From Candidatus Aerophobetes bacterium Ae_b3b (GTDB lineage Bacteria > Aerophobota > Aerophobia > Aerophobales > AE-B3A), in the NCBI GenBank assembly GCA_005223085.1, contig NJBP01000006.1:1-59586 (forward strand): a DNA stretch of 59,586 nt, read 5' to 3'. A model generated the notes under the pieces. That model worked only from the letters and a program-made list of their open reading frames with translations. It did no database searches and was not told the DNA's origin. The position numbers and the translations under genes were made by a program. Below are positions 47,098 through 48,778 of the stretch, in pieces. Each line of letters starts with the position of its first letter. Positions within the stretch are counted from its first letter, which is position 1.

Positions 47098-47127
47098 GAA
47101 GAGCAGGGCTTAATCGCCCTGCTCTTC
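47098..47127 (-). terminator. Hairpin downstream of the repeat-protein gene
   Basis: GAAGAGCAGGGC / GCCCTGCTCTTC 12-bp perfect stem. Confidence 0.65.
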
Positions 47128-47185
47128 ATTCTTTGTTCTTATGCTCTAAATCAGCATACGTCTCCGATCGGCGGCACTTCTGGTT

Positions 47186-47569
47186 CTAGTCCTGATCCTG
47201 ATCCTCGTCCTGATCCTCGTCCTGATCCTCGTCCTGATCCGGCTCTGGCGCTGCTGGGTCTTCTATCGCTCCCGGGTCTTCTATAGCTCCCGGGTCTTCT
47301 ATCGCTCCCGGGTCTTCTATCGCTCCTGGGTCTTCTATCGCTCCTGGGTCTTCTATCGCTCCTGGGTCTTCTGGCCCTGGCTCCGTTCCCGGTGTTGCCT
47401 CTTCCGCTGGTGCTGTTGCCTCTTCCGCTGGTGCTGTTGCCTCTTCCGCTGGTGCTGTTGCCTCTTCCGCTGGTGCTGTTGCCTCTTCCGCTGGTGCTGC
47501 GCCAGATATTGCAACGGCGGAACCAATTACCAGGAGTACAACGAGCCCTAATACTAAAGCTTTTTTCAT
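47186..47569 (-). CDS. Secreted, highly acidic low-complexity tandem-repeat protein
   Basis: AGGAGGTG RBS, signal peptide MKKALVLGLVVLLVIGSAVA, then (APAEEAT)x5, (EDPGAI)x6 and (DQDE)x3-4. Confidence 0.75.
   Translation of the reverse strand: MKKALVLGLVVLLVIGSAVAISGAAPAEEATAPAEEATAPAEEATAPAEEATAPAEEATPGTEPGPEDPGAIEDPGAIEDPGAIEDPGAIEDPGAIEDPGAIEDPAAPEPDQDEDQDEDQDEDQDQD
47189..47497. repeat. Three adjacent coding minisatellites (12, 18 and 21 bp units)
   Basis: GTCCTGATCCTC at about 47189-47240; GGGTCTTCTATCGCTCC(C/T) at about 47256-47371; TGTTGCCTCTTCCGCTGGTGC x5 at 47393-47497. Confidence 0.92.
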
Positions 47570-47878
47570 GCTTTTTCACCTCCTTCTTGAGATACTTTGA
47601 GCATTCTTAGTTATCTGCTTATCTAGAGTTCTCAATTGATCGAAGAGTGAAGATGGGACAGTTTTAAATCCCGAGTAGCCTGTCTAGAGGGTGCTAGCTA
47701 TCCTGCTAGGGAGGCATGGCACTCTGGGTAAAGGTGGTTTGCCTGGTCCTCTGGTAGTTTAGCTAGCTCAAAAGGTTCAGGAGCAATGGGAAAGCGTCTG
47801 GGGGGAGAAAAATGGAAGATCTCGGAAATTTGGGGTATAGAGCAGGATGAGCTTGAGGAGAAAAGAGGTTACATACAA

Positions 47879-48002
47879 GTGAACAACCCCACAGCAAAGC
47901 TGTGGGACATCCTCAACTGCATGGATAACGGGACTCCGTCCCCTTATAACCCCTGCCATTCATCCCCTCAGCAAGCTGAGGGGTATTCTGGCATTTTTTT
48001 AT
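47879..48002. mobile_element. Non-autonomous IS200/IS605-like miniature element (two sub-terminal hairpins, no transposase)
   Basis: GTGAACAACCCCACAGCAAAGCTGTGGGACATC at the left and GCCATTCATCCCCTCAGCAAGCTGAGGGGTATTCTGGC at the right; related hairpins of the kind that mark IS200/IS605 ends. Confidence 0.55.
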
Positions 48003-48037
48003 AAAAAAGCCCCTTCTTTTCTGGAGAACGGGCTTTT
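48003..48037 (-). terminator. Intrinsic terminator (riboswitch expression platform)
   Basis: Minus strand AAAAGCCC..TTCT...AGAA..GGGC-TTTTTT, directly 3' of the aptamer. Confidence 0.7.
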
Positions 48038-48045
48038 GACGTCAA

Positions 48046-48130
48046 AGAGCTTCGGCAGCCTGGCCATCGTCTCTCGGCGACCCATGGCTTTGCGTCGTAC
48101 CCTTGCGGATAGTTTGCCTTTGTCGGCTCT
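48046..48130 (-). ncRNA. c-di-GMP-I (GEMM-I) riboswitch
   Basis: Minus strand AGAGC-CGACAAA-GGCAAACTATCC-GCAA-GGGTACG-ACGCAAAGCCATGGGTC...GACGATGGCCAGGCTGCCGAA-GCTCT: GGCAAA, GNRA tetraloop, ACGCAAAGC, GCTGCC and P1 pairing are all present. Confidence 0.85.
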
Positions 48131-48188
48131 TAAGAGACCAGCTTTTCATGCACACCAATTTCTATTGGCAAGAACTTGTTTCACCCTG

Positions 48189-48226
48189 TTTCAATTGTAT
48201 TATAATACAAAAAAATTTTTTGTCAA
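48189..48226 (-). promoter_or_regulatory. Promoter of the riboswitch transcript overlapped by a palindromic operator-like site
   Basis: TTGACA(48226-21)-16-TATAAT(48204-199); the -10 lies within the perfect palindrome TTGTATTATAATACAA (48195-48210). Confidence 0.7.
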
Positions 48227-48394
48227 GAGGAAAGTTTTTCAACTAAAAACTGGATATAGGTTTTGGCTTGCGAATAATCTACTTTTGGCCGGTGAGCCTT
48301 CTATTTTAGAAGAACAGAGAGGCAAAATAAGATAGGATTTGAAGATAATTGAGGAAACTGTGGTAAACTTAAAGGATTAACTTCTTTGCAAAGC

Positions 48395-48730
48395 TCAATT
48401 CGAAGTCTTTTGTTTTTGATATTTCGTCTTTTTTTGAAGAAAAAGAGCTCGATTCAAATCTTCCTCAGCGATGAAATTCTCATTAAGAAGAATTTCTCCT
48501 AACAGTTTATTTTTCCCCTCTTTTTGCTGGACTTCCAGGCTCTTGCTAAGTTCTTTATTATTCATACAGCCAATCTCACACAGTATCTCTCCCAGCTTCT
48601 TTCCCATAAAGTATTCCTCCAAGATAGAAAGTATCACAGCACTTTTGCTTTTTCTCTCTTTTCTTGCCTTGTCTTTGGCTGCATTAATTAGGTGCCTATC
48701 TTCCGCAGTATAGTAGATAGTGGTCTGCAT
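48395..48730 (-). CDS. Ribbon-helix-helix-like DNA-binding domain fused to an MshEN-type c-di-GMP-binding domain
   Basis: N-term QTTIYYT (beta) - AEDRHLINAAKDKARKERK - SKSAVILSILEEYF; C-term tandem KLGEILCEIGCMNNKELSKSLEVQ and LLGEILLNENFIAEEDLNRALFLQ fitting RLGxxLxxxGxxxxxxLxxxLxxQ; GGAG RBS. Confidence 0.75.
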   Translation of the reverse strand: MQTTIYYTAEDRHLINAAKDKARKERKSKSAVILSILEEYFMGKKLGEILCEIGCMNNKELSKSLEVQQKEGKNKLLGEILLNENFIAEEDLNRALFLQKKTKYQKQKTSN

Positions 48731-48753
48731 TGTTTTCTCCCAGATATAATTAT

Positions 48754-48778
48754 TTTCAATTGTATTATAATACAAAAA
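48754..48778. promoter_or_regulatory. Second copy of the palindromic operator-like site
   Basis: TTTCAATTGTATTATAATACAAAAA, identical over 25 bp to 48189-48213, about 25 nt upstream of the RHH-MshEN ATG. Confidence 0.7.

Follow-up and report, generated by a model that had tools for sequence, protein, structure and literature searches.

A candidate cyclic di-GMP cassette combining a ribbon-helix-helix/MshEN-type protein, a class I riboswitch and a secreted repeat protein in Candidatus Aerophobetes

Introduction

PilZ and MshEN were the only broadly distributed receptor domains for cyclic di-GMP (c-di-GMP) known before ComFB, according to the cited section of the ComFB report (PMC12448109, 2025). 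The published pattern of the MshEN domain is two 24-residue motifs, RLGxxL(V/I)xxG(I/F)(L/V)xxxxLxxxLxxQ, separated by a 5-residue spacer (cited section of PMC5013675, 2016). In the searchable literature MshEN is described on ATPases, glycosyltransferases and other domains, and no description places it on a DNA-binding fold. Here we analyse a stretch of 59,586 nucleotides from Candidatus Aerophobetes bacterium Ae_b3b (GenBank contig NJBP01000006.1; the whole stretch is called the window) that carries, within about 1.7 kb, a gene for a candidate ribbon-helix-helix (RHH)–MshEN protein, a class I c-di-GMP (c-di-GMP-I) riboswitch and a gene for a secreted acidic repeat protein. We consider it probable, at roughly 60%, that this module is a cassette through which c-di-GMP controls a secreted or surface protein, and that the messenger is sensed there at two levels, by a protein and by an RNA.

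NikR and MetJ are RHH repressors governed by a small ligand, NikR through a C-terminal domain and MetJ through a co-repressor. The RHH protein CdbA of Myxococcus xanthus binds c-di-GMP with the RHH fold itself and is described, in the cited part of its report, as a nucleoid-associated protein confined to the Myxococcales (PMC7156744). Vibrio cholerae tfoY is a gene on which, in the cited part of a preprint, the Vc2 class I riboswitch and the c-di-GMP-dependent factor VpsR come together (bioRxiv 10.1101/617340). Tandem c-di-GMP-I riboswitches are discussed in the passage cited as an arrangement that gives a sharper, pseudo-cooperative response (PMC12452182).

A first-pass annotation of the window had pictured an autoregulated factor and a riboswitch reading the same messenger in series, and knew of no described module of this architecture. 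We likewise found no MshEN-based transcription factor, RHH-MshEN protein or riboswitch-regulator-riboswitch cassette in the full-text-searchable literature; Supplementary Tables 3 and 5 of PMC5013675, which lay outside that search, may list RHH fusions. Each single part of the locus is already known, and what is new is the domain fusion and the circuit layout.

Results

Layout of the module

The window, contig C41, belongs to a 2.04-Mb metagenome-assembled genome (MAG; 86 contigs, 43% G+C, 88.6% estimated completeness), and the closest named homologue of its regulator protein carries the label Candidatus Aerophobetes. As the first-pass annotation had it, the palindromes, regulator gene, consensus promoter, aptamer, terminator, downstream open reading frame (ORF) and final hairpin follow one another, with a further promoter ahead of the regulator gene, in this layout on a single strand, the minus strand, to which module coordinates refer unless stated otherwise:

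48791..48764, minus: promoter P1 of the regulator gene, TTTCCA-16-TATAAT (consensus scan, 10/12 matches), inside the 39-nt repeat D5
48760-48775, unstranded: palindrome copy 1, TTGTATTATAATACAA, over the P1 -10 hexamer (inverted-repeat scan and assembly-wide exact search)
48730..48395, minus: gene for the 111-residue protein with predicted RHH fold and MshEN motifs, stop codon included (NCBIfam, profile, model, Foldseek and homodimer prediction)
48226..48199, minus: promoter P2, TTGACA-16-TATAAT, ahead of the riboswitch leader (consensus scan, 12/12 matches)
48195-48210, unstranded: palindrome copy 2, TTGTATTATAATACAA, over the P2 -10 hexamer (inverted-repeat scan and assembly-wide exact search)
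48127..48050, minus: c-di-GMP-I (GEMM-I) aptamer, canonical type (RF01051 and RF03167 covariance scores)
48037..48005, minus: hairpin of an intrinsic terminator right behind the aptamer, with a U run to 47999 (RNAfold, -15.9 kcal/mol)
48003..47871, minus: hairpin-rich, lineage-specific leader insert of 133 nt (missing from the C82 paralogue and from L104-L107)
47870..47570, minus: long 5' leader, of which 47870..47693 is 93% identical to the paralogous C82 leader
47569..47186, minus: secreted acidic repeat protein of 127 residues (signal peptide; APAEEAT, EDPGAI and DQDE repeats)
47098-47127, unstranded: hairpin 3' of the repeat-protein ORF with a 12-pair stem, a likely terminator for both strands

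That protein and RNA sensors of c-di-GMP are built into one cassette ahead of a secreted protein is supported by conserved synteny, fold and profile evidence.

A predicted RHH dimer joined to an MshEN-like bundle

Homologues back the ATG at 48730 as the start of the regulator: across 111 aligned sequences M1 is at least 90% conserved, Q2 is invariant and the consensus begins MQTT, and the N-terminal strand MQTTIYY as a whole is nearly invariant. The protein matches the NCBIfam model NF053729 ("cyclic di-GMP-binding domain, MshE-related"; c-di-GMP_motif) at 43.3 bits against a cut-off of 38, with weaker matches to EpsG and NfrB, the latter a c-di-GMP-activated glycosyltransferase. When a profile of the 111 members is searched against the PDB, it finds PilF of Thermus (6f8l, E 2.9e-18), Geobacter-type PilB (5tsg/6olj, E 1.4e-7) and the N-domain of Vibrio MshE (5htl, E 5e-6), c-di-GMP-binding domains of PilF being among the matches, and the best alignments run gapless across the 7-residue linker of the family. 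Tested against the published MshEN pattern, motif 1 (K45-Q68) fits a relaxed form of it, and motif 2 (L76-Q99) keeps hG, LL, L, L and Q, with L at position 1 and N in place of Gly at position 10. The second motif of the c-di-GMP-bound PilF GSPII-B domain likewise reads LLG in the profile alignment.

An AlphaFold2 model of the regulator (mean predicted local distance difference test, pLDDT, 88.3) has an N-half of extended residues 1-8 and helices 9-24 and 29-41, and a C-half of four helices (46-52, 58-71, 77-83 and 89-110). Its top Foldseek matches are c-di-GMP-bound MshE and PilF GSPII-B (0.8-1.8 Å over 53-60 columns, 28-42% identity), with superpositions at 1.2-1.5 Å on 5htl and 0.8-1.8 Å on 8pdk/8pfa over 53-56 columns (E 0.08-0.37). 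CopG comes next (1ea4/2cpg at TMt 0.73-0.75, E above 1), Arc is also matched, and the match to CdbA is weak (E 4.1-4.6). In the predicted models the C-half adopts the four-helix-bundle fold of MshEN_N, and the N-half adopts the strand-helix-helix fold of RHH proteins with an antiparallel two-strand dimer sheet.

The predicted homodimer has a median score of 0.66 against 0.00 for the best control, at least 82% contact agreement between runs and a partner pLDDT of at least 80, with an interface made of the strand at residues 1-9 and both RHH helices (contacts, for example, 4:3, 4:4 and 5:5). The mark used here was reached in calibration by 20 of 30 solved one-chain pairs and by 1 of 23 solved single-chain proteins; because RHH dimers have already been solved, reaching it signifies likeness to known structures only. 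The ligand was only carried along, unscored, in the dimer modelling. We read the C-half as matching, in profile and model, an MshEN_N bundle reduced to its four helices, which is the c-di-GMP-binding fold of MshE and PilF, and the N-half as modelling as a dimeric, CopG-like RHH DNA binder. In a tblastn search of the assembly, neither the regulator nor the repeat protein had a paralogue.

The regulator family is linked to c-di-GMP-I aptamers

A word-indexed search limited to proteins of 61-195 residues, with longer fused forms outside its scope, collects 331 family clusters at E ≤ 0.001, nearly all unnamed or "hypothetical" and a few named as CopG/Arc/MetJ regulators; the ESM Atlas holds unnamed "hypothetical protein" clusters only, commonest in Candidatus Bipolaricaulota. 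One genome per species was retained, which gave 70 loci with the following record labels:

Bipolaricaulota or Acetothermia type: 31/70
"Thermotogae" type (MAG labels): 27/70
Fraserbacteria: 5/70
Aerophobetes: 2/70
other: 5/70

Rfam scans of all 70 loci yielded 85 c-di-GMP-I hits distributed over 45 of them, every one on the strand of the regulator gene, so the conserved co-occurrence that the first-pass annotation had called for is found. An aptamer lies within 400 nt upstream of the gene at 41 of 68 evaluable loci and within 500 nt downstream at 31 of 62, and 30 loci have both. Five genomes of 1.5-2.4 Mb contain 5-13 aptamers each, 2-3 of them at the module, and chance placement is therefore excluded; in all of these linkage counts related genomes are not independent samples.

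The arrangement is also regular in its spacing. Of the 41 loci that have an aptamer upstream, 39 have a cTTGACA box ahead of the first aptamer, and in most of these 39 the -35 box is a fixed 49-50 or 40-42 nt from that aptamer; in most loci the second aptamer follows 40-90 nt past the regulator stop codon. By eye, no promoter was seen between this stop codon and the second aptamer in most Bipolaricaulota-type loci. Because the second aptamer is so near the stop codon, with no visible promoter between, the usual unit in relatives would be a single-promoter series of promoter, aptamer, regulator, aptamer and adhesin target. A riboswitch thus stands ahead of the regulator gene as well in most relatives, which changes the likely circuit from the one first pictured. 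Two loci (L027 and L032) have a second regulator copy behind the second aptamer.

Two further features of these loci were recorded. An extra small ORF with MshEN-like LGxxLL motifs and no RHH part lies between regulator and downstream aptamer at L063:1235-1700 and L065:1355-1714. Many Bipolaricaulota-type operons (L014-L083) have a GCA(C/A)TTAG(T/G)TCA(T/A) box after the -10, with about 15 nt between the -10 and the first aptamer; it is conserved though the -35/-10 spacer is not, and may serve as an operator or else belong to the riboswitch leader. An operator common to the window and the Bipolaricaulota promoters was considered on the strength of this conserved box and rejected, RNA and DNA constraint being inseparable there.

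A canonical aptamer and a conserved terminator

The riboswitch call of the first-pass annotation was borne out by covariance models. The aptamer scores 63.4 bits on RF01051 (gathering score 35) and 61.4 bits on RF03167 (c-di-GMP-I-GGC; gathering score 59, a margin of 2.4 bits), and its alignment covers the full length of the model, with a GCAA tetraloop and both hairpins paired. Read from the sequence, the P1 stem can be extended outside the model by AAGAG/CUCUU. At model position 37 the window has ACGC-A-AAGC where the GGC consensus has ACGC-G-AAgC. We take the G after ACGC at this position to be the one for which the GGC variant is named, and the position itself is presumably tied to a ligand contact. 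Clan competition in Rfam names the GGC variant; we rejected this identity on the A at the diagnostic position and on the RF01051 score far above threshold. The aptamer is, judged by its sequence, a bona fide canonical c-di-GMP-I aptamer with predicted ligand binding.

The terminator provides an expression platform 3' of the aptamer. Its stem is kept in 7 of 7 related leaders compared by eye in printed sequences (the window, C82, two copies in L104, L105, L106 and L107), a G.G mismatch having become G.U in two of the seven. A simple terminator scan did not list the hairpin at 48037..48005. A 5'-flank/P2-loop pairing that looked compensatory between the window and C82 failed in L104b and was dropped.

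There are six c-di-GMP-I aptamers in the assembly: a tandem pair on C9 and single copies on C18, on C6, at the start of C82 and in the window. The C6 copy (C6:24959-26860), with its terminator, stands ahead of a 573-residue PilB/MshE-type ATPase that has a Pfam MshEN domain. RNA- and protein-level c-di-GMP sensing coincide here on one gene for a second time in this genome.

Surface-protein targets and the window's own clade

By a strict criterion, 24 of 31 aptamer-to-ORF assignments open with a hydrophobic segment free of charged residues, and the start codon in Bipolaricaulota-type loci is usually 15-35 nt past the aptamer. The 31 downstream proteins contain these Pfam domains:

DUF11: 11
DUF7507: 11
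DUF7927: 5
PKD_4: 4
CARDB: 4
SpaA-like, Big_1, Big_9, cadherin-like, VWA, MucBP and SdrD_B: 1-3 each

This tally leaves out L036:3489 (doubtful frame), L027:3964 and L032:4879 (second regulator copies) and a duplicate L035 row, replaces L063:1832 by L063:2179-4233 and adds four second operon ORFs. By their Pfam matches the domains are cell-surface adhesin-type repeats. Together with the signal peptide in the window, they agree with the surface or matrix protein that the first-pass annotation had proposed as target. In minimum-energy folds of second aptamers of the Bipolaricaulota type, 8 of 23 leaders pair the Shine-Dalgarno sequence with a CCUC in the second hairpin of the aptamer, 5 pair it elsewhere and 10 leave it free or partly paired; the pairing with CCUC is a hint of what would be ON-type translational control.

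Closer to the window, its regulator has homologues of 77-96% identity at five metagenome loci. L104, L105, L106 and L107 have P2 and the aptamer about 270-320 nt behind the regulator and none upstream. The order regulator, P2, aptamer, acidic repeat protein is kept in L104, L105 and L107, with the same signal peptide, MKKALVLGLVVLLVIGSAVAIS..., in the same place, and their acidic repeats differ (EDPVV, EDPGAI/K or EQQ-rich). The target has thus kept its position and its kind, and it is the repeats that change rapidly.

The leader and its transcripts

The repeat-protein ORF has a hydrophobic N-terminus and 21-, 18- and 12-nt tandem repeats (D1-D3), and the mature part of its product has a calculated isoelectric point of 4.05. 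From the aptamer to the ORF, which is downstream of it, the distance is 480 nt, on which the earlier reading had not remarked; the leader that follows the terminator accounts for about 430 nt. About 133 nt of this gap (48003..47871) are an insert that the C82 paralogue and four close relatives do not have; it contains three G+C-rich hairpins, lies past the riboswitch terminator and ahead of the conserved part of the leader, has no further copy in the assembly and is skipped by the RNA-library contigs of relatives. Between the window and C82, the leader segment 47870..47693 is conserved at 93% and the aptamer at 81%. On the minus strand, a consensus scan of the stretch from P2 to the ORF found no sigma-70-like site.

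In a single metatranscriptome study, runs X18 and X20 have contigs that cover the ORF and reach through its leader as far as 47863. One X20 contig, from a relative without the insert, joins 48069-48003 to 47878 and so crosses the terminator. Runs X17 and X19 are probably DNA, and window parts without RNA cover, such as the regulator gene, are uninformative. The RNA contigs and the absence of an internal sigma-70-like site fit an mRNA initiated at P2.

A duplicated promoter region

Exactly two copies of the 16-nt palindrome TTGTATTATAATACAA exist in the whole 2.04-Mb assembly, both in the module and each over a sigma-70-like promoter, and each sits in a copy of the 39-nt direct repeat D5 (87% identity between copies). 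The region has 4 promoter-like sites against 3.0 ± 1.6 in shuffles, an ordinary count. A candidate operator would have the form TTGTA-N6-TACAA over both -10 boxes. The palindrome alone is weak evidence for an operator, because its core is the genomic -10 consensus and, judged from ORF translations, precedes unrelated genes too. The 39-nt promoter duplication and the near-invariant N-terminal strand of the regulator family are still suggestive of one.

Repeats, a recombinase and a cassette junction nearby

A repeat of about 130 nt occurs in at least nine copies in the assembly, two of which (window 46912-47039 and 48912-48985) bracket the c-di-GMP module. The others are at C84:8901-9028, C18:21882-22009, C30:8115-8237, C6:511-636, C61:105-196, C65:6384-6440 and C27:4031-4130. 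The repeat contains a hairpin, GACGAC-AAAAT-GTCGTC, both arms of which co-vary between copies (GACGCC/GGCGTC, GAGGAC/GTCCTC), a TAAAAT -10-like box, a mini-ORF of the form GAGGAAAG-N-ATG and, 95 nt further, a second box, AAGACGACAAA; it has no Rfam match at gathering scores. A large serine recombinase (Resolvase, Recombinase and Zn-ribbon domains; window 43752-45117) lies next to the tRNA gene that ends an rRNA operon. The 3 kb between this recombinase and the module may be an integrated element, and the relative L104 is without that flank.

The paralogous riboswitch and leader at C82:1-912 (L003) lie at a contig edge, the contig beginning with TATAAT. Homology to the window leader stops at C82:353, past which an ORF matches only the C-terminal part of CsgG (profile positions 138-203/210) and FlgT_C, followed by an outer-membrane beta-barrel protein. 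From its sequence, C82:1-912 looks like a cassette junction.

Discussion

A c-di-GMP circuit with protein and RNA sensors

In the circuit that we propose, P2 would drive the c-di-GMP-I riboswitch and, because a conserved intrinsic terminator follows the aptamer, the riboswitch would gate read-through into the long leader and the signal-peptide acidic repeat protein. P1, a nearly identical promoter directly upstream, would drive the 111-residue RHH-MshEN protein. This protein would bind c-di-GMP and, as a dimer or tetramer, would bind at or near the duplicated promoter, where it could determine how transcription starts at its own gene and at the riboswitch unit. Elongation in the window, and translation in Bipolaricaulota-type relatives, would then be set by the riboswitch. 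In most relatives the protein sensor would itself be under riboswitch control, since their order is promoter, aptamer, regulator, aptamer, adhesin, and a same-ligand RNA-protein-RNA cascade would result. Autoregulation and AND-gate logic are features that we only infer.

A wider proposal is more tentative, and we hold it at a little under even odds: RHH-MshEN may be the founding family of MshEN-based, c-di-GMP-dependent transcription factors, wired between two c-di-GMP-I riboswitches of one operon so that c-di-GMP passes three successive checks (RNA, protein, RNA) on the way to large adhesins. Bipolaricaulota-like and Aerophobetes-like bacteria may have this same-ligand feed-forward cascade as their principal c-di-GMP output device. 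The c-di-GMP networks of these bacteria appear very small, the window's genome having six aptamers and a single GGDEF gene, a count that we place on the favourable side.

A number of observations weigh against reading the module as a twofold c-di-GMP sensor. The identification of an RHH-MshEN gene in the first-pass annotation holds by NF053729, PDB profile, fold search and predicted RHH dimer and falls short in Pfam, where both domains miss their cut-offs: MshEN (PF05157) has no match at E 0.1 or in the genome scan, and the sole RHH-type match, PF02697 (VAPB_antitox; E 0.01), reaches 17 bits against a cut-off of 27.9, so that the protein does not join a curated RHH sequence family. No Foldseek match attains E 0.001 or better, because the domains are short. 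The second motif departs from the published pattern across the family, with L at position 1 in 80 of 83 sequences and E at position 10 in 57 of 83, and the inter-motif spacer is systematically 7 residues instead of the published 5; the relaxed MshEN motif is found once in 85 of 111 members and twice in 1 of 111, both core patterns being present in 83 of 111. Aptamers are absent from 25 of the 70 loci, all five Fraserbacteria included, and among relatives of the same order or family an aptamer lies within about 1.2 kb in only 3 of 8, one of them divergent. Folding of the window leader gave no convincing anti-terminator, so the ON/OFF direction is not deducible from it. The RNA contigs, finally, come from relatives, do not show strand or ends and may include DNA carry-over.

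The palindrome also belongs on this side. Its 10-nt core, TATTATAATA, is itself a palindromic -10 consensus with 12 sites genome-wide, and in close relatives the flanks are changed at 6 of 8 sites, with 1-3 non-compensatory changes each; both sites of L104 are exact, and symmetry is not restored at the other six. The operator-like palindrome pointed out in the first-pass annotation thus survives as a pair of exact copies over both promoters, and its standing as strong operator evidence is weakened by the -10 core and by flanks that drift in L105-L108.

Alternative explanations

These properties of the palindrome are what one would expect if it were simply a duplicated strong promoter, with the riboswitch as the only c-di-GMP switch on the secreted protein and RHH-MshEN as a co-located, co-regulated effector that has another job; that job might be regulation of distant genes, a CdbA-like nucleoid role or c-di-GMP buffering. 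Most of the 12 TATTATAATA sites lie 16-18 nt from a TTGACA-like box. Three of them are riboswitch promoters (C9, C18 and C41) and one is the regulator's own promoter, and the remaining sites appear to precede unrelated genes (PpdK-like, ZapA-like, LacI- and MarR-type regulators), as identified by reading ORF translations without a family search. A regulon defined by TATTATAATA was dropped on this ground, most sites seeming to serve unrelated genes. At least three palindromic flank pairs are found at 5 of the 12 sites, the window's two included, and in most Bipolaricaulota-type loci one promoter serves the whole operon, judged by eye. We nevertheless regard a lone riboswitch switch as unlikely. 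In 30 loci, from a diverse set of MAGs, the regulator gene is tightly enclosed by two aptamers on its own strand, which points to a shared function; the near-invariance of MQTTIYY fits a conserved, specific DNA target; and what the two promoters have in common extends over 39 nt, beyond the -10 box.

It is less probable still that aptamer and terminator form a stand-alone small RNA, with the repeat protein expressed from its own non-consensus promoter in the 480-nt gap and no functional link between the two. The length of the gap (about 350 nt in relatives), the strength of a terminator for which no anti-terminator was found, and a leader better conserved than the aptamer, a hint of a separate element, would all suit this explanation, and a P1-Vc2 small RNA offers a precedent in Vibrio cholerae in the cited part of the preprint (bioRxiv 10.1101/617340). 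It is opposed by the minus strand free of sigma-70-like sites from P2 to the ORF, by the RNA-library contigs that extend from the ORF to 47863, one bridging the terminator, by the order of aptamer, leader and signal-peptide protein kept in L104, L105 and L107, and by start codons 15-35 nt past the aptamer in Bipolaricaulota-type loci. Cassette shuffling or mobile DNA could also have produced the arrangement as a by-product without regulatory meaning. Copies of the ~130-nt repeat bracket the module, a large serine recombinase sits beside a tRNA gene 2 kb off, the paralogous C82 leader abuts the CsgG-like ORF with its partial profile match, and several family loci reach a contig break soon after the gene. 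Such an origin would leave unexplained why 30 loci, in MAGs whose labels span several phyla, agree in gene order and strand, and why the -35-to-aptamer spacing is fixed in most of the 39 loci where a TTGAC box is present, and we consider it very improbable.

Significance and comparison with known systems

The reading of the module as a c-di-GMP-controlled cassette with both kinds of sensor would, if true, be of interest to the c-di-GMP and riboswitch fields. RHH-MshEN would add a new, easily testable class of c-di-GMP-responsive regulator, and a regulator placed between riboswitches for the same ligand would be a natural example of protein and RNA sensors acting in series. The compactness of the cassette, at about 1.7 kb, lets thresholds, feed-forward logic and the reason for having both sensor types be tested directly. 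The system would also give a first handle on the control of surface adhesins in uncultivated Bipolaricaulota and Aerophobetes.

VpsR is a regulator of the enhancer-binding type. The tfoY system, in the part of its description used here, resembles the proposed circuit in that c-di-GMP controls one gene by way of both a class I riboswitch and a transcription factor that binds the messenger and acts at promoters; it differs in that VpsR is encoded elsewhere and acts at promoters that bypass the riboswitch. In the window the candidate 111-residue sensor is encoded in the cassette, and in most relatives its own mRNA bears a riboswitch. Tandem c-di-GMP-I riboswitches, as described in the passage cited above, similarly have two aptamers for the same ligand in one transcription unit, whereas in the cassette of the relatives the aptamers are parted by the gene for a candidate receptor of that ligand.

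At the level of the protein, CdbA is, as far as its cited description goes, a small RHH DNA binder that is also a c-di-GMP receptor, a likeness that is predicted for the window protein; unlike CdbA, the latter has its ligand motif on a separate MshEN_N bundle. With NikR and MetJ it would have in common an RHH module coupled to ligand sensing, while ligand and ligand domain differ and neither of these repressors is known to have a riboswitch partner. The closest likeness of its C-half is to MshE, PilB and PilF, in which a pair of 24-residue motifs, (R/K)LGxxL...LxxxLxxQ, makes up a four-helix bundle, and whose structures (5htl, 8pdk and 6f8l), c-di-GMP-bound ones among them, are matched by family profile and model. 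Unlike these proteins, it has a 55-residue MshEN_N part only, fused to a predicted DNA-binding fold and not to an ATPase or glycosyltransferase, and it departs from the published MshEN pattern in its 7-residue spacer and in the Leu at position 1 of motif 2.

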